Shown: positions 3,951 through 17,050 of the stretch, piece by piece
Layout of the letters: every line of letters starts with the position of its first letter
Position numbering within the stretch: position 1 is the first letter of the stretch
Source of the DNA: a virus
Lineage: Duplodnaviria > Heunggongvirae > Uroviricota > Caudoviricetes
Strand: one strand, 5' to 3'
DNA length: 21,799 bases
Virus record (IMG/VR): IMGVR_UViG_2690316325_000016
Made by a program: the position numbers and the translations under genes
The notes under the pieces: generated by a model
What the model was told of the DNA's origin: nothing
The model's database searches: none
Seen by the model: the letters and a program-made list of their open reading frames with translations, nothing else

Positions 3951-4244
3951 ATGAAAAAAATGTTGTTTTCTGCCGCTCTGGCAATGCTTATTACAGGATG
4001 TGCTCAACAGACGTTTACTGTTGGAAACAAACCGACAGCAGTAACACCAAAGGAAACCATCACCCATCATTTCTTCGTTTCGGGAATTGGACAGGAGAAA
4101 ACTGTTGATGCAGCCAAAATTTGTGGCGGCGCAGAAAATGTTGTTAAAACAGAAACCCAGCAAACATTCGTAAATGGATTTCTCGGTTTTATTACTTTAG
4201 GCATTTATACTCCACTGGAAGCGCGTGTGTATTGCTCACAATAA
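3951..4244 (+). CDS. bor: Bor outer-membrane lipoprotein (serum resistance, lysogenic conversion)
   Basis: 97 aa, signal peptide with lipobox LITGC, near-identity to recalled lambda Bor; opposite strand to late operon as in lambda. Confidence 0.9.
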   Translation: MKKMLFSAALAMLITGCAQQTFTVGNKPTAVTPKETITHHFFVSGIGQEKTVDAAKICGGAENVVKTETQQTFVNGFLGFITLGIYTPLEARVYCSQ

Positions 4245-6397: not shown

Positions 6398-6656
6398 GGT
6401 TCTTTCCACCATCTGAAAAATAATTCTTTAAAATACCTGACATGTAATACAGAAAAAACACAAAACCATACCTTAAATAAAAACCTGATTATCAAGCAGA
6501 TATGCATGGATAAACTACAAGACGAGATATAAACCACCCTGTATTTAAATAAACAATAAACAACATCAGAAAAATAATTCTGCTCTATGGTTTAATTCAA
6601 AAATATCATTTATACTTTTCAGAACATCACCAGCAAGGCATAAACAAGGAAAGTAA

Positions 6657-6992
6657 ATGAAGTGGATTGTGATTGATACAGTTATCCAGCCATCATGCGG
6701 AATATCTTTTTCAGTCATATGGAGTAAAATAAAATTAATAATCTGGTATCAATCGGATGCTTTCTTACCTCCTGAAAGTATATTTACACTGACTCACACA
6801 GGCATCATGCTCAATAACAAAGTGCTACCTGTAACCATTTACAACGTAGTACCATTCAATAAAACATTCTGGAATTTAATCAAAAACAACCAGGAATGCC
6901 CTACAAATACAGATAACGTAATGAATGAATGCTTTAATAACCGTTGCACTCTGCAAATATGTCCTTATGGACTAAAACAACAAAGTCCATAA
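6657..6992 (+). CDS. AT-rich moron protein (111 aa), antisense to late operon
   Basis: AAGGAAAG SD 6 nt before ATG; TATACT -10 at 6611-6616; 11 bp stem hairpin at ORF end; 6 of 13 Ile codons are AUA. Confidence 0.5.
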
Positions 6993-6994
6993 GG
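6963..6994 (+). terminator. Hairpin (11 bp stem, 10 nt loop) at 3' end of plus-strand moron ORF
   Basis: ccttatggact-aaaacaacaa-agtccataagg; weak U-tract. Confidence 0.35.
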
Positions 6995-7009
6995 AGTTTA
7001 CTCACATCT

Positions 7010-7048
7010 GACAAAATCAATATAAACAGCCCCTCCGGAGAGGGGCTG
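7010..7048 (-). terminator. Intrinsic terminator-like hairpin plus U-tract for minus-strand transcription
   Basis: 9 bp GC-rich stem cagcccctc/gaggggctg with cgga loop, followed on minus strand by TTTATATTGATTTTG. Confidence 0.5.
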
Positions 7049-7272
7049 GAGAGTGGCGCTATGTGCCATTGCATGGTGCCGGGTGCCTCCCGGTGAATTC
7101 AGTACCAGCACCTGAATCCGCGATTATCCCATATACCTACTCGCTGATTGCCCCTCCGCACAGGGGGATTCACCATGCCAGTTTCTTTTAACAAACTCCC
7201 CGCAAACCAGACAACAGTCAACCGCCTGAATTGTGAAGTATTTAAAAATTTCTCCCGCTAACTGATACCCGG

Positions 7273-7359
7273 CTAACAGTCTGGCGTTTTCTTTTTCAGC
7301 AACGGGAAAGCAACAACCACCACACCCGCCACCAGCACACCGTCAGCCAGCACTGACAT
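7273..7359 (-). CDS. Possible 28 aa hydrophobic peptide (type I toxin-like or leader)
   Basis: MSVLADGVLVAGVVVVAFPLLKKKTPDC; no strong SD; lies in hairpin-rich region. Confidence 0.2.
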   Translation of the reverse strand: MSVLADGVLVAGVVVVAFPLLKKKTPDC

Positions 7360-7439
7360 TATCCGGCTGCTGCAATGCCACTCACAAAAACAGTAAGCAA
7401 TCACTTTTTACCGTAACAAGTGATAATCCAGATATGTAT

Positions 7440-7766
7440 CTACCCCAGATGAGTAATCCGAAGTTCATCCATACCACAGGTACTGGCTATTCTGTTGTAC
7501 TCCTGAACAAGAGCAAATAATTCTGAATTAGCAACCATGAACTCATCGCAAACCCTCTGTATAGCATCACTATTCAGAATAATAACGTCTCTTCCCGAAA
7601 GACGATCAGGAGTACAGAACAAAACTGTCAAACGGCTGAAGGCCTTTGCTCGTCCTGCATTGACTATATCAATACGCTGCCTAAGGATGAAACACCCCGA
7701 CGCCTCATCAATATTCACTCTACCCACACCATATGAATGATAAATATTTAATGCTGAAAAAACCAT
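7440..7766 (-). CDS. Moron protein at Q-downstream locus (108 aa from first ATG; track ORF begins at TTG 7793)
   Basis: Protein-like ORF in late-transcript orientation; weak RBS; 3 AGA, 2 AGG and 3 AUA codons. Confidence 0.4.
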   Translation of the reverse strand: MVFSALNIYHSYGVGRVNIDEASGCFILRQRIDIVNAGRAKAFSRLTVLFCTPDRLSGRDVIILNSDAIQRVCDEFMVANSELFALVQEYNRIASTCGMDELRITHLG

Positions 7767-7906
7767 TAGACCGTATAACAAACACTCAATCAATACTTAA
7801 CAGAACTTTTATTTTTGACAAACATAAAATATTTTCAACAATATCCTGAGCCAGGTATATTTCAGTATAAGGCTCTGCCGGAAGGAATCTGGAAGAATGA
7901 ATATAG

Positions 7907-7980
7907 CGCGCTGTACTGGATTCGAACCAGTGACCGATTGCTTAGAAGGCAATTGCTCTGTCCGGCTGAGCTAACAACGC
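7907..7980 (-). tRNA. tRNA-Arg (anticodon UCU), CCA not encoded
   Basis: Cloverleaf parsed by hand: acceptor GCGTTGT/ACAGCGC, D-arm GCTC/GAGC, anticodon loop CTTCTAA, T-arm ACTGG-TTCGAAT-CCAGT. Confidence 0.9.
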
Positions 7981-8080
7981 TGAATACCGATAATGGACCG
8001 CCATCGGGGACCCGCCCCCGCACCAACAACCCTGTTATCGTGTCGTCTGCTCTTCCTGATAAGCTAATGGCGGTTTGTGA

Positions 8081-8156
8081 TGGTGGCCCTTGCTGGATTT
8101 GAACCAGCGACCTGGCGATTATGAGTCGCTCGCTCTCACCACTGAGCTAAAGGGCC
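8081..8156 (-). tRNA. tRNA with CAU anticodon, ileX-like (tRNA-Ile2, lysidine) rather than Met; CCA encoded
   Basis: GGCCCTTTAGCTCAGTGGTGAGAGCGAGCGACTCATAATCGCCAGGTCGCTGGTTCAAATCCAGCAAGGGCCACCA; close to recalled E. coli ileX. Confidence 0.85.
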
Positions 8157-8195
8157 GGGAGCAGAATAATAACGGTCCGTAATTAATTCCGCAAT

Positions 8196-8218
8196 AAAAA
8201 ACCCGCTCGGCGGCGGGT
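8196..8218 (-). terminator. tR-prime-like intrinsic terminator downstream of late promoter
   Basis: Minus strand reads ACCCGC-CGCCGA-GCGGGT followed by TTTTTT. Confidence 0.6.
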
Positions 8219-8266
8219 TGTAGAAACTCTTCTAACGTCAGGCATAAAAAGCCCATTATTATGACG

Positions 8267-8299: not shown

Positions 8300-9121
8300 T
8301 TACCTAGTTACCTTTTTTAACTGCCGCTCAGCCCATGCTTCTTCAATATCAAACCGGGTCACCAGCGCATCATAGAATTTCTTAACTGTTTTTTCCCATG
8401 ACGCGCGTGTTATCTGGTTTGTCACCTCGCATATAGCATTAAATGCCTCCGTTGATGGTAGTCTTTCATAGCCACGACCACCACAACGCTGGCAGTCTCT
8501 GATAACAGGCATACCACGTTTTACCGACTCTTCACGATGAATGGCGACACCACGCCCACGGCAATCCTTACAGGCAGTGGAAACCTCACCCTTTCCGCCA
8601 CACTCCGGACAGGCAACTTTTACCACCTCCCTGACTTTTTTCCATTCTTCCCAGTAAGACGAATACACACCTTTCGTACACTTTGCCCATACCGGCGGCT
8701 TACCATCCGGATACTGGACCTTGTTTGTAAAAACTACGCTTTCAATAAATTTTTCCCCATAGCAACAAGGGCACTGCTTTTTACTCGCTGCGCTACGGGC
8801 ATAATCCTCAAAAGCGTACGAAGCCATAATGCGCATCACTACCGGTTTTATTTCTGCCGGAAGTTTTCTCAACGCCGCCACACGATCGCACCGACTGAGT
8901 GCATAATCTGCCAGTAATTCTGTTGCCCGCGCCCTGTCATTCATACTGATGCCCATTTTCCCCAGGAACGCAGAAAAACCCATCTCAGCCCGATTCTGTG
9001 TCATGCCCTGCGCGGCCATCACATCAGTGATACTCAGCGCATCTTTTGACGTTGAGGCCGATGCATCGGTCAGGCCAGGGGATTTTGGGGAGTAGTATTT
9101 CGGTAAATCTTCCAGTTTCAT
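8300..9121 (-). CDS. Putative late antiterminator Q (Q82/QuuQ-like family) with three CxxCGGxG-type zinc knuckles
   Basis: 273 aa; position immediately upstream of PR-prime/tR-prime and tRNAs; motifs CPECGGKG, CKDCRGRG, CQRCGGRG. Confidence 0.55.
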   Translation of the reverse strand: MKLEDLPKYYSPKSPGLTDASASTSKDALSITDVMAAQGMTQNRAEMGFSAFLGKMGISMNDRARATELLADYALSRCDRVAALRKLPAEIKPVVMRIMASYAFEDYARSAASKKQCPCCYGEKFIESVVFTNKVQYPDGKPPVWAKCTKGVYSSYWEEWKKVREVVKVACPECGGKGEVSTACKDCRGRGVAIHREESVKRGMPVIRDCQRCGGRGYERLPSTEAFNAICEVTNQITRASWEKTVKKFYDALVTRFDIEEAWAERQLKKVTR

Positions 9122-9498: not shown

Positions 9499-10557
9499 TC
9501 ATGCTTTCCACTTCAGGACACCCGAATTTCTCGCGTGCATTAAAAAACGAATCAGCAACAACAGCTGGCTGCCGTGTTTTTCTTCAAAATCTTTTACCCC
9601 GGCGTGCAGTTCGTTATGACATTTACGGCACAGCGGAATAACAAACAAATCATCAGCCTTTGTTCCCATACCTCCCAGGCCATGACCAATGATGTGATGC
9701 GGATCATCTGCCTGATTACCGCACGTCATGCATTTCTGCGTTTTTACCCAGCGCGTGTATACAGGCATCTCTTCCCGTTGTGGTTTCTGGCGCTGGAGAT
9801 ACTGAGCCGGAGACTCCGGATCAACGGCGATGCTTACTAACGTCTTTTCCTGGAGTGGGGGCTGTTGCTGGTGGACGTGAAGTGGCAGCGCAATATTTTT
9901 TGTGCGCTGCTTCAGTATGCTGGTGGCAGTCTGTTCTCCCGGTACGATGTCACTCTCACGGTATACGGAGCGGATTTTTTCCACCGGTAATCCCAGTGAA
10001 CGACACAATACAGACTCCGGAAGCGCATCAGCCACCTGATTGCAGACCGCCCACCAGGATAATTCGGCCAGCGATAACTCCCTCTCCTGCGTACCGCTGA
10101 TTGCGTGACGGATGACGTCAATCATCCATGCTGACAAGTTTTGGTGAGCAAGTTGCTCAAGTGATTCTGAGGTCTGGTCACACAACTGGTTGTCGCAGTG
10201 CCAGCACAACACCATTGCGCCGGTACCATAACGGTGAATGACGGTTTCACTGTGGTGATAATCACCGTGTGGCCACTGGCAGGATTTAATATGGCGCAAC
10301 AGCCAGTCAGACAGTGCACCAGCGCCGCCAGCAGCACGAATCACACGCTCATTGCTGAAAAATGGCAGTAATGATTTATCCTCCGCCAGCGGCTGGCGAA
10401 CGGCAGGGACGACTCCGGATGGCAGGCCGCACATGCTTTTCGGTTCCGGCTCCACCAGCACTCGAGGATTATGAAATATCTGTATGGATTCACGGCCCGG
10501 CTTAAGGACCACCAGCCCAAGCTCAGGCACCAGAACAGGTCTAAGTAATACCCGCAC
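9499..10557 (-). CDS. DUF968-family protein (YdfU-like) with C-terminal HNH-like motif
   Basis: 352 aa; GTG start with GGAGGT SD 4 nt upstream; C-terminal CMTCGN...HHIIGHG...CRKCHNELH. Confidence 0.7.
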   Translation of the reverse strand: MRVLLRPVLVPELGLVVLKPGRESIQIFHNPRVLVEPEPKSMCGLPSGVVPAVRQPLAEDKSLLPFFSNERVIRAAGGAGALSDWLLRHIKSCQWPHGDYHHSETVIHRYGTGAMVLCWHCDNQLCDQTSESLEQLAHQNLSAWMIDVIRHAISGTQERELSLAELSWWAVCNQVADALPESVLCRSLGLPVEKIRSVYRESDIVPGEQTATSILKQRTKNIALPLHVHQQQPPLQEKTLVSIAVDPESPAQYLQRQKPQREEMPVYTRWVKTQKCMTCGNQADDPHHIIGHGLGGMGTKADDLFVIPLCRKCHNELHAGVKDFEEKHGSQLLLLIRFLMHARNSGVLKWKA

Positions 10558-10930: not shown

Positions 10931-10999
10931 AAGTGCGGGTGCGTTGAGGATGCCTGACACATCAGCGGTGGCGAGGGATTTCTCCCCCCGCCTGGTCTC

Positions 11000-11155
11000 T
11001 TACTCCTCAGGTTCGTAAGCTGTGAAGACAGCGACCTCCGTCTGGCCGGTTCGGATTCGTACCTCGCAGAGGTCTTTCCTCGTTACCAGTGCCGTCACTA
11101 TGACGGTTAAACAGATGACGATCAGGGCGATTAACATCGCCTTTTGCTGCTTCAT
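11000..11155 (-). CDS. hokD: Hok-family type I toxin (HokD/RelF-like), 51 aa
   Basis: MKQQKAMLIALIVICLTVIVTALVTRKDLCEVRIRTGQTEVAVFTAYEPEE; AAGGAG SD; overlapping short mok-like ORF 11152-11211. Confidence 0.85.
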   Translation of the reverse strand: MKQQKAMLIALIVICLTVIVTALVTRKDLCEVRIRTGQTEVAVFTAYEPEE

Positions 11156-11413
11156 AGCCTGCTTCTCCTTGACCTTTCGGTCCGTAAGAGGCTAATCTCT
11201 ATGTGTCGCATAGATATGGCCTCAGATTAATGTTAAGCGTCTTGCAGGACGCGTAATGTTAACTGGGGCTTTTCTCTATCTGCCTTTTGGTGTTCATGCC
11301 TGAGACAGATAGCCTCAAGCACCCGCAGTCATTCTACTTAACTAAGATTTCCCCGCAAACCGTTTTTGTCCGGCACAGTAAATATCCAACTAAACCAATG
11401 GCGTTCGCTGTAT

Positions 11414-12521: not shown

Positions 12522-12878
12522 TTATTCAGTTCTGGATTTTGTCGCCCTGCGTATCCGCGCTTTCGCGTTACGCTCAATCTGAATTAGCTTTTCTATATTT
12601 TTTCGCCTTTCCCGCTCCTCCTGACGCAAGAGCCTTACATCATCTGCCAGTCTGGTTTCTCTTTTCGCCACAGAGAGCATCCAGTCAAATGGCTCCACAA
12701 CTGCACCGCAGATTTTACAGCGGACCTGACGCTCTTTTTCGTCAACCCGGACAGAGGCGTGATGACAATATGGTCTTTCCGATGGCTCATAAAGAAAATT
12801 AACCTGATTACGAGGGTCATCCTCTTTTACCGGAAATAAAACGATATTGCTTAACTCATCCTCTGGTTTTATTTCCAT
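12522..12878 (-). CDS. Hypothetical protein with CHH...CxxC motif and basic C-terminal tail (alternative GTG start 12935)
   Basis: AAGGAGAGGAG SD immediately before ATG 12878; 118 aa. Confidence 0.6.
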   Translation of the reverse strand: MEIKPEDELSNIVLFPVKEDDPRNQVNFLYEPSERPYCHHASVRVDEKERQVRCKICGAVVEPFDWMLSVAKRETRLADDVRLLRQEERERRKNIEKLIQIERNAKARIRRATKSRTE

Positions 12879-15187: not shown

Positions 15188-15826
15188 ATGAGCAAGCAAA
15201 CTATATCTGAACGCATAACCCAACGTATGCATGCGCTAAACCTGAAAGGCAAAGACCTTGTCAATGGCACTGGCGCATCAAAAGGCTCCGTAAGTCAATG
15301 GATGAACGGTGGAGGAGCGCCGTCCTCGCGTTACATAAGTTCACTGGCAAAAATATTGAAAGTAAACGAAAATTGGCTTCTTAATGGAGGAGAGTTAAAT
15401 ACAGGTGATTCGCTTGATCTATCTTTACCGCCGATAAAAACGGTTCCGCTACTATCACTTCAGCAGGCAGCAAGCTGGAGTGATTATATGAAAAATTCCT
15501 CAATAACCTCTTGTGTGCAGCTTGTCGGAGAAATCCCGGTCAATACCTTTGCAGTTGTTCTAGAGAGTGACAGTATGTCAACATCTGGTGGGGGAGTTTC
15601 CATCCCAAATGGTTCAACAGTTTTTGTTGATCCCGATCGAACCGTACAACCAGGAAATATTGTCCTTGCCTTACCCAAAGGGACCACAACACCTGTCATT
15701 CGTAAACTGGAGATAGAAGGGCCGGATATTCTTTTAGTCCCCACGAATCCTCGCTACCCTTCAATTATGCTGGATGATCTATCTTGCATATTGGGCGTAT
15801 GCTTTAAAATTCAACAAGATATTTAA
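15188..15826 (+). CDS. CI-type prophage repressor (N-terminal HTH_XRE + C-terminal S24 LexA-like peptidase domain)
   Basis: 212 aa; HTH at N-terminus, catalytic Ser-Lys region in C-terminal half; divergent from cro. Confidence 0.85.
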   Translation: MSKQTISERITQRMHALNLKGKDLVNGTGASKGSVSQWMNGGGAPSSRYISSLAKILKVNENWLLNGGELNTGDSLDLSLPPIKTVPLLSLQQAASWSDYMKNSSITSCVQLVGEIPVNTFAVVLESDSMSTSGGGVSIPNGSTVFVDPDRTVQPGNIVLALPKGTTTPVIRKLEIEGPDILLVPTNPRYPSIMLDDLSCILGVCFKIQQDI

Positions 15827-16992: not shown

Positions 16993-17050
16993 TTTCTGGT
17001 GACGTTTGGCGGTATCAGTTTTACTCCGTGACTGCTCTGCCGCCCTTTTT
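16993..17050 (+). ncRNA. dicF: DicF small regulatory RNA (ftsZ-targeting), processed from dicB operon transcript
   Basis: Sequence TTTCTGGTGACGTTTGGCGGTATCAGTTTTACTCCGTGACTGCTCTGCCGCCCTTTTT matches recalled DicF; terminal hairpin plus U-tract; correct spacing between ydfC and dicB. Confidence 0.8.

Follow-up and report, generated by a model that had tools for sequence, protein, structure and literature searches.

The AUA, AGA and AGG codons of iraL and ORF117, two cargo genes of a lambdoid prophage, probably reflect base composition, and the phage tRNA genes beside them probably form an independent, generic module with no dedicated coupling to either gene. The window, a stretch of 21,799 nucleotides from a Caudoviricetes virus (IMG/VR record IMGVR_UViG_2690316325_000016), was studied mainly at 6657–8156. 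In this region, an intact-looking lambdoid prophage of extraintestinal Escherichia coli carries its cargo, flanked by the gene for the Q antiterminator and the lysis genes. Strain EC32 has an identical segment, and ST131 strains and CFT073 have near-identical ones. Over the whole window there is a one-base difference from EC32, in a C-run, which offsets annotation beyond window position 10975 by 1 nt.

Genes of the cargo segment

The minus strand is ordered tRNA-Ile2, tRNA-Arg(UCG) remnant, tRNA-Arg(UCU), ORF117, DUF3927 and STnc100, with iraL convergent on the plus strand (Table 1). In the terminator scan, a hairpin (7027–7048) with a minus-strand T-run behind it marks the 3′ end of the STnc100 sRNA.

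Table 1. Features between the iraL leader and the Q gene, in window coordinates
Feature	Position	Strand	Basis or description
iraL transcription start and 33-nt leader	6624..6656	+	match to CFT073 5′ RACE sequence
iraL, IraM-family RssB anti-adaptor	6657..6992	+	111 codons, 34% GC
STnc100 / PasD-family prophage sRNA	7018..7207	-	Rfam RF02076, 132.4 bits (gathering 47), model positions 1–206 of 206
DUF3927 small protein, 43 aa	7273..7404	-	Pfam PF13064, E 1.7e-27; PGAP
ORF117, conserved phage protein, function unassigned	7440..7793	-	phrog_2873
tRNA-Arg, anticodon UCU (reads AGA/AGG)	7906..7980	-	ARAGORN; Rfam tRNA 68 bits
Decayed remnant of middle tRNA-Arg(UCG)	7994..8073	-	alignment to CFT073, GTEN_97, O157
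tRNA-Ile2, anticodon CAU, ileX/ileZ type (AUA after lysidine modification)	8081..8156	-	ARAGORN; PGAP tRNA-Ile
Promoter-like element of tRNA cluster	8166..8194	-	TTGCGG 8194–8189, 17 nt, TATTAT 8171–8166, 9 nt to tRNA 5′ end
Intrinsic-terminator-like hairpin and T-run (tR′-like), between Q and tRNAs	8200..8219	-	terminator scan
Late-gene antiterminator Q, 273 aa	8300..9121	-	Pfam PF03589, E 6.3e-55; PGAP

The product of the plus-strand frame matches NCBIfam NF007393 (IraM) over residues 1–110 with 162.3 bits (cutoff 121) and the solved IraM chain PDB 8TWD with E 1.4e-31, and it shares 62% amino acid identity with chromosomal IraM. With CFT073 iraL, 334/336 nucleotides are identical; the two substitutions change two amino acids (N78S and M89L, given as changes here relative to CFT073). 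By these matches the frame is iraL, a known RpoS-stabilising gene that has already been characterised. The CFT073 iraL mRNA 5′ RACE sequence ACATCACCAGCAAGGCATAAACAAGGAAACCA (PMC4045071) fits the window from 6624 at 30/32 positions, and TATACT is located ahead of this start at 6612–6617. Log-phase cells were used to map the start in CFT073, and RssB binding and sigma-S stabilisation were shown for the CFT073 protein; the multicopy plasmid pACYC184 carrying only iraL, from −100 through the coding region, raised sigma-S in K-12 (PMC4045071). The same paper (Hryckowian et al. 2014) is silent on codon usage and tRNAs, with 0 occurrences of 'trna' in its text. At 98% identity to the CFT073 protein, the IraL encoded here would be expected to bind RssB and stabilise sigma-S, and would act as a self-promoted anti-adaptor stabilising RpoS in growing lysogens. 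The gene has the properties of a moron: its own mapped start, 34% GC against ~50% in the flanks, and a position between Q and holin, convergent to the late operon. No plus-strand terminator for iraL was evident in the terminator scan. The CFT073 locus shares the leader and the neighbours (Q, tRNA cluster, DUF3927, iraL, a DUF1737 remnant and holin) but there the three tRNAs are all retained and an IS200 separates them from Q.

The minus-strand frame, ORF117, was left out by PGAP and RAST and carries no annotation in EC32, CFT073 or phage mEp460. An open frame that had arisen by chance in AT-rich spacer DNA would look much the same in several respects: none of the three candidate starts (TTG 7793, ATG 7766 and GTG 7718) has a clear Shine–Dalgarno sequence, Pfam, NCBIfam and PADLOC gave no match, and the level of rare codons is typical of spurious ORFs. 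The fold search gave no information, the AlphaFold model (a hairpin of two long helices, pLDDT 68.5) having no Foldseek match with E < 0.001 in PDB or BFVD. Such a chance frame is nevertheless improbable in view of the conservation. ORF117 matches phrog_2873 (E 6.6e-70) and, more weakly, phrog_4827, and has 23 homologues, including a clade at 57–60% identity. Against a 68% identical homologue, dN/dS is 0.26, with differences concentrated at third positions (24/22/42 at codon positions 1/2/3). ORF117 is the sole frame of the six without stops in both clades; dN/dS was likewise low (0.24) for the antisense frame with shared wobble positions, which was rejected as coding on account of 2 stops in each clade. 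Protein-level conservation includes the N-terminal extension, for which the other clade has an ATG, and ORF117 is intact in 7/7 loci that carry the module. By these comparisons ORF117 is a real, unannotated conserved phage gene, a late-region gene that annotation pipelines have omitted.

The tRNA cluster is located directly downstream of Q on the late-operon strand (8156–7906). The CAU-anticodon tRNA is, by its sequence, of the Ile2 type and not Met, with lysidine modification predicted; the tRNA-Ile of an O157 Stx2c prophage matches it with 100% identity, and the gene is called ileZ in records of related phages. The tRNA-Arg(UCU) gene encodes CTA for CCA at its 3′ end (GCTA here, GCCA in the aligned copies of CFT073, GTEN_97 and O157). 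The remnant between them aligns to intact tRNA-Arg(UCG) copies at both ends, whereas the anticodon-arm region is scrambled and contains a 3-nt insertion; neither ARAGORN nor Rfam calls a tRNA at 7994–8073. With two of the three tRNAs (Ile2, Arg-UCG and Arg-UCU) called, the cluster is a degraded representative of its type and documents decay within a lambdoid tRNA cluster. Selection on the Arg tRNAs would appear weak here, given a remnant in one case and the loss of the encoded CCA in the other.

Five loci share a conserved 43-nt block directly upstream of the cluster; farther upstream, their sequences are unrelated (IS200 in CFT073, a methylase remnant in O157). A 'pS tRNA promoter' has been named at the corresponding position in Stx2 phages (PMC2858043). 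We infer that the element at 8166–8194 serves as a promoter and that the tRNAs would be expressed in lysogens. From its position, the hairpin at 8200–8219 is taken to be the Q-antiterminated terminator. The idea that the tRNAs are silent in lysogens behind a terminator downstream of Q was dropped in view of the conserved promoter-like block and the published promoter. Part of a 1.9-kb segment is matched in 3345/5426 complete E. coli genomes, at 10,087 places, prophage-type iraL in only ~1,450. In phage mEp460, the Q–tRNA–ORF117 module stands ahead of different cargo, without iraL. The cluster would accordingly be described as an independent module, probably self-promoted, that reappears downstream of many Q genes irrespective of cargo.

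Rare codons against three yardsticks

The preliminary description had reported, from hand counts, that the two frames are enriched in the codons read by the two phage tRNAs, and had argued from this that both are real genes with translation coupled to phage tRNA supply. On recounting, the counts proved exact. iraL contains six ATA, three ATT and four ATC among its 13 Ile codons, with a single Arg codon and no AGA or AGG; ORF117 (117 codons) contains three AGA, two AGG and three ATA, with 11 Ile and 10 Arg codons in total. Combined, the three codons amount to 54/1000 codons in iraL and 68/1000 in ORF117.

How enriched these values appear depends on the yardstick. Against the host background, a single 50-kb sample of 39 CDS and 13,062 codons with 6.0/1000, the enrichment is 9-fold for iraL and 11-fold for ORF117. 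Against the other 44 prophage CDS (22.5/1000, itself 3.7 times the host sample), it falls to 2.4-fold (nominal binomial P 0.04) and 3-fold (P 0.005); neither P value stays significant after correction for 46 genes. Among the 46 prophage CDS, ORF117 ranks 3rd and iraL 5th, and the genes ranked above them include one hypothetical (85/1000) and one for head closure (71/1000). In the late structural genes, which are heavily expressed, the three codons are nearly absent (per 1000: capsid 5, portal 7, tail 0 and protease 0).

Against base composition, the enrichment disappears. In iraL, six AUA, AGA and AGG codons are observed and 7.5 expected, and the ATA share of Ile (6/13) compares with 5.6 expected from third-position composition; in ORF117, eight are observed and 6.1 expected. 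The claimed enrichment thus holds against the host sample and the other prophage genes and is absent against the composition null, so the two genes show no excess beyond both composition and the rest of the prophage. All six frames of 6400–7900 lie at 44–72/1000 ATA/AGA/AGG. In the window, 85 mechanical ORFs lie outside annotated frames; they reach 43.6/1000 (51/1000 in the subset below 45% GC) as compared to 28.7/1000 in annotated frames, and 34% of the 85 reach the IraL value. As these presumably spurious ORFs are richer than annotated frames, the rare codons are no evidence of coding and point, if anywhere, away from it. That both frames are real genes is upheld on other grounds, namely the family match and CFT073 identity of iraL and the phrog_2873 match and dN/dS of ORF117; the rare codons have to be given up as an argument.

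Across the 46 prophage genes, GC content and rare-codon frequency show no correlation (Spearman 0.00), so the composition argument rests on the per-gene expectations and not on regression. The Iss/Bor moron of the same prophage (41% GC) has none of the three codons, against 6.0 expected. The high values in iraL and ORF117 would be a mark of AT-rich, horizontally moving and weakly expressed genes, their codon choice tracking mutational composition rather than selection or adaptation to the adjoining tRNAs; mutational bias as the cause is our inference from these expectations.

Relatives with and without linked tRNAs

K-12-type chromosomal iraM belongs to the same family, has 34% GC and AUA-rich Ile codons, and has three AUA positions in common with iraL. 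It adjoins icd, with no Q gene near and no tRNA within 3 kb, yet its AUA usage is higher than that of iraL (9/19 Ile; 84/1000 as compared to 54/1000). An AUA-rich iraM without a tRNA shows that the codon bias is separable from linkage to tRNAs. The iraM-type copy of the O157 Stx2c phage has ATA at 7/14 Ile. Locus L006 (Q, PemK, methylase, an AraC-like gene and an ORF117 homologue), in which no tRNA was found, carries cargo as rich in these codons (PemK 68/1000, AraC-like gene 58/1000). The ORF117 homologue has three rare codons per 92 both in L006 and in L002, where tRNAs are near. The drop of these codons expected in tRNA-unlinked relatives is not seen.

Linkage of tRNA-Ile2 to prophage iraL-type loci is real: in 9/9 prophage iraL/iraM-type loci inspected, it lies within 1–2 kb, with two Q types and three intervening cargos, although common descent and a fixed genomic slot make the nine a non-independent sample. 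Close relatives carry between 0 and 2 tRNA-Arg genes.

The closest parallel to the cluster is ileZ-argN-argO of Stx phages, also downstream of Q, with an identical tRNA-Ile2, the order Ile-Arg(UCG)-Arg(UCU) and the same upstream block. In Stx2 phages, an IraM-like gene is convergent, directly after stx2B. Here, the middle tRNA has decayed, and ORF117, DUF3927 and STnc100 take the place of stx as cargo. The ATA share of Ile in stx2A of the O157 locus (15/20) is far above that of iraL (6/13), the third-position expectation having been computed for iraL only. Plunkett and co-workers reportedly described ileZ-argN-argO between Q and stx in 1999 and proposed that it aids the rare codons of stx and other genes. 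A codon-compensation model for phage tRNAs is likewise said to have been put forward by Bailly-Bechet and co-workers in 2007. The idea has been cited for phage SfI, where tRNAs lie downstream of Q (PMC3636060). Our data resemble this model in that the codons of the phage tRNAs are 3.7 times commoner in prophage genes than in the host sample. Unlike the claimed coupling, the model applies at whole-genome scale and neither predicts nor needs a special link to two morons, and none is seen.

Explanations for the association

Translation of iraL and ORF117 could have evolved a dependence on, and be gated by, the supply of phage tRNA-Ile2 and tRNA-Arg(UCU). The rare-codon counts at 9–11 times the host sample, the constant presence of tRNA-Ile2 at the iraL-type loci and the AUA richness of stx2A, the classic neighbour of the cluster, all fit such a dependence, as does ORF117 itself, which follows tRNA-Arg on the same strand after 113 nt and has AGA or AGG at 5/10 Arg codons; the seemingly self-promoted cluster may also be on in lysogens. 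We nevertheless judge it very unlikely, and the specific coupling claimed in the preliminary description is not borne out: the bias is at the level of composition, tRNA-unlinked iraM is richer in AUA than iraL, the L006 cargo is equally rich without tRNAs, the ORF117 homologue has the same count with and without them, the Iss/Bor moron has none of these codons, and tRNA-Arg is irrelevant to iraL, which has no AGA or AGG. The state of the two Arg tRNA genes, one a remnant and one without an encoded CCA, also speaks against it. The activity of iraL alone in K-12 argues against a strict dependence on phage tRNAs (PMC4045071); with that plasmid being multicopy, a modest benefit of a generic, quantitative kind may exist.

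The tRNAs might instead be in decay, hitch-hiking with the Q module, or might replace host tRNAs cut by anticodon nucleases during infection, with no present role in decoding the rare codons of the prophage. This is unlikely, though less so than a gated dependence. The scrambled middle tRNA, the CTA end of tRNA-Arg(UCU), the variable Arg tRNA number and the near-avoidance of these codons by late structural genes agree with it, but the perfect conservation of tRNA-Ile2 between distant prophages, along with its promoter-like block, argues for continued selection, and the prophage-wide usage of the three codons fits the codon-compensation view (cited in PMC3636060). In the reading we prefer, of compositional bias beside a generic module, the cluster would boost supply for codons about four times commoner in the prophage than in host genes; as such a module serves the codons of the whole prophage, any help to iraL or ORF117 would be generic and quantitative, not dedicated.

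A more specific possibility, to which we give only a slight chance, is that the AUA codons of iraM and iraL act as a translational throttle, making anti-adaptor output and RpoS sensitive to tRNA-Ile2 supply, so that self-promoted prophage tRNA-Ile2 raises IraL in lysogens. If true, this would be a new regulatory route, by tRNA dosage, from a prophage to the host general stress response (RpoS). On present evidence, the value of the locus is mostly cautionary, with an ordinary rare-codon pattern, a compositional codon bias and a generic lambdoid tRNA module; rare-codon richness beside phage tRNAs should be checked against a composition null and tRNA-unlinked relatives before adaptation or coding is inferred.

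Four of the six AUA codons of iraL cluster in codons 16–28, and all three iraM/iraL paralogues retain AUA at three positions despite 22–30% nucleotide divergence; both could matter for translation. Among the codons read by the cluster, iraL needs AUA only, which agrees with Arg tRNAs varying from 0 to 2 at iraL-type loci.

Prophage and the two genes

The window is an E. coli lambdoid prophage that matches strain EC32 (NZ_CP085619.1) over the whole 21.8 kb bar one base, a difference in the length of a C homopolymer (10975-10990) just downstream of hokD. The segment around iraL and ORF117 is present at 99.9% identity in many ST131 genomes. The hokD/sok toxin-antitoxin pair (11000-11324, minus strand) and the DicF sRNA (16994-17045, plus strand) with the dicB-ydfABCD genes form a Qin/Rac-like immunity and early region. 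Of an intact CI-type repressor ORF of 212 aa (15188-15826, plus strand; HTH_3 and Peptidase_S24), PGAP calls in EC32 only the C-terminal 112 aa, under the name 'LexA family protein'.

Features of the late region from Q to iraL
Feature	Coordinates	Strand	Evidence or arrangement
Q antiterminator	8300-9121	minus	Pfam PF03589
Terminator-like hairpin	8219-8200	minus	terminator scan
tRNA, CAT anticodon (tRNA-Ile2)	8081-8156	minus	
tRNA-Arg, TCT anticodon	7906-7980	minus	
ORF117, 117 codons	7440-7793	minus	
DUF3927 peptide gene	7273-7404	minus	Pfam
STnc100 / PasD-family prophage sRNA, full length	7018-7207	minus	132 bits, gathering score 47
DUF1737 remnant, then holin, lysozyme, Rz, terminase		minus	in this order after STnc100
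iraL	6657-6992	plus	convergent to the whole late-region series

The plus-strand ORF is a gene on evidence independent of rare codons. It scores 162 bits against the NCBIfam IraM model (cutoff 121), matches the IraM chain of the solved structure 8TWD and differs by 2 nt from CFT073 iraL, with neighbours identical in kind; the published 5' RACE sequence of iraL maps at position 6624. IraL, described in 2014, is an RssB-binding protein that stabilises sigma-S in growing cells (PMC4045071). O157 and other Stx2 prophages have an IraM-like gene with 78% nucleotide identity to iraL directly after stx2B, in convergent orientation (L010:4016-4339, L017:3016-3339); the copy of strain UC4224 carries an internal stop and is a pseudogene. 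iraL is bordered directly at its 3' end by the terminator hairpin of STnc100 (7027-7048). A plus-strand PGAP 'pseudogene' (7063-7188) falls within STnc100 and is probably spurious.

ORF117 is annotated neither by PGAP (EC32, CFT073) nor by RAST (phage mEp460). Sequence comparison nevertheless indicates a conserved gene, again independently of rare codons. It matches phrog_2873, and its homologues include a second clade with 57-60% identity; differences at codon positions 1/2/3 number 24/22/42 (dN/dS 0.26), and it is the only stop-free frame in both clades. The predicted model is a helical hairpin, for which fold searches gave no informative structural matches.

Rare codons and base composition

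The preliminary description had counted the codons ATA, AGA and AGG by hand, and its counts are exact: iraL has ATA 6, ATT 3 and ATC 4, and ORF117 has AGA 3, AGG 2 and ATA 3 in 117 codons. The single Arg of iraL is encoded by neither AGA nor AGG. Per 1000 codons, the three amount to 54 in iraL and 68 in ORF117, against 6.0 in the host sample (39 annotated CDS, 13,062 codons; ATA 6.2% of Ile codons, AGA/AGG 4.0% of Arg codons) and 22.5 in the other prophage CDS (n = 44, among them structural genes lying immediately beyond the window). Prophage CDS span 0 to 85 per 1000, with ORF117 ranking 3rd and iraL 5th among 46 (uncorrected binomial P 0.005 and 0.04). The reported enrichment therefore holds, well over the host and moderately over the prophage mean, but neither gene is an outlier and both match their base composition. 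From the nucleotide frequencies of each gene, 7.5 such triplets are expected in iraL (6 seen) and 6.1 in ORF117 (8 seen); third-position composition predicts ATA for 5.6 of the 13 Ile codons of iraL (6 seen), and all six frames of 6400-7900 hold 44-72 per 1000. Base composition accounts for the bias of both ORFs, while the enrichment relative to the host is real. The two richest prophage genes, neither a moron, are a hypothetical early gene (12522-12878, minus strand; 85 per 1000) and a head-closure gene outside the window (L001:4350-4688; 71 per 1000).

Rare codons had also been taken to argue that both ORFs are real genes. That conclusion stands on the independent evidence, but not for this reason: 85 mechanical ORFs (at least 50 aa) outside annotated frames contain 43.6 per 1000, or 51 where their GC is under 45%, versus 28.7 for those within annotated frames, and one third of the spurious ORFs attain the value of iraL. 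Rare codons are no evidence of coding.

tRNA supply and the two genes

The further proposal, that translation of both genes is coupled to phage tRNA supply, is not supported as a dedicated relationship. Chromosomal iraM, beside icd, has no tRNA nearby, yet 9 of its 19 Ile codons are ATA (84 rare codons per 1000). In L006, a Q region where no tRNA was found between Q and the ORF117 homologue, AT-rich genes reach 58 and 68 per 1000; the homologue carries 3 rare codons per 92 in L006 and likewise in L002, where tRNAs are present. The Iss/Bor lipoprotein moron of the window (3951-4244, plus strand; 41% GC), exposed to the same tRNA supply, is the opposite of iraL, with 0 ATA/AGA/AGG against 6.0 expected; it is located in a 39-41% GC island. 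K-12 is not known to carry this phage tRNA cluster. A plasmid with nothing more of the locus than iraL from -100 to the end of its coding region raised log-phase sigma-S in K-12, and iraL at attTn7 also complemented in CFT073 (PMC4045071). The K-12 result rules out strict tRNA dependence; a modest effect is still compatible with it because the plasmid is multicopy.

A real, quantitative effect of tRNA-Ile2 keeps a small probability through its linkage to iraL, the placement of AUA codons and the probable promoter of the tRNA cluster. At all nine prophage iraL/iraM-type loci inspected, the opposite strand carries a tRNA-Ile2 no more than 1-2 kb away; these loci cover two Q types, three kinds of intervening cargo and 0 to 2 Arg tRNAs. 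This linkage is weak evidence, since the loci are related by descent and occupy one fixed genomic slot. Codons 16-28 of iraL hold four AUA, and AUA occurs at three positions common to all three paralogues, against a baseline of 34% of conserved degenerate codons identical in all three. The tRNA-Arg has no bearing on iraL, which has no codons for it. Most likely, iraL and ORF117 are accessory genes of AT-rich composition and unselected codon usage. The codons that the tRNA cluster reads are 3.7 times commoner in the prophage overall than in the sampled host genes. The codon-compensation view of phage tRNAs (cited in PMC3636060) fits this figure. Capsid, portal, tail and protease, the most heavily expressed late proteins, are nearly free of rare codons.

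The Stx-phage-type cluster was reportedly described in 1999, as was the idea of its serving nearby genes rich in rare codons. In stx2A (O157 locus), ATA takes 15 of 20 Ile codons, a far larger share than in iraL, the third-position expectation having been computed for iraL only. No publication was found on iraL codon usage; the observation is one case of an idea already known and fails the controls. The counts are accurate and the genes real for other reasons, and the host-relative enrichment is compositional. The whole interval consists of described kinds: iraL, the Stx-phage-type tRNA cluster, STnc100 and DUF3927.

The tRNA cluster

The CAT tRNA is called tRNA-Ile by PGAP and is 100% identical to the tRNA-Ile of an O157 Stx2c prophage, which makes the Ile2 assignment sound. 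Of the middle tRNA-Arg(UCG), a scrambled remnant is left (about 7994-8073, minus strand), and the 3' end of tRNA-Arg(UCU) (7904-7906) is encoded as CTA versus CCA in the CFT073, GTEN_97 and O157 copies. These sequences point to a three-tRNA cluster decaying here; given the remnant and the CTA end, strong selection for Arg-tRNA supply in this prophage lineage is not suggested. The cluster most likely corresponds to the general tRNA module of lambdoid phages; in Stx phages, from which this module is known, the tRNAs accompany stx. Phage mEp460 shares the Q-tRNA-ORF117 module but lacks iraL and has different cargo. Among 5426 complete genomes, 3345 have some part of the 1.9-kb segment, at 10,087 places in all, and about 1,450 genomes have prophage-type iraL.

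A block of 43 nt upstream of tRNA-Ile2 (8157-8199, minus strand) is conserved in five loci despite unrelated sequence further upstream and includes TTGCGG-17-TATTAT. A 'pS tRNA promoter' is named at the corresponding place in Stx2 phages (PMC2858043). The block is probably the cluster's own promoter, and the tRNAs may thus be expressed in lysogens; on the same grounds, they need not be Q-dependent. In CFT073, the interval from Q to the tRNA cluster contains an IS200C element (L018:5176-5634), placed precisely at the upstream boundary of the promoter-like block.
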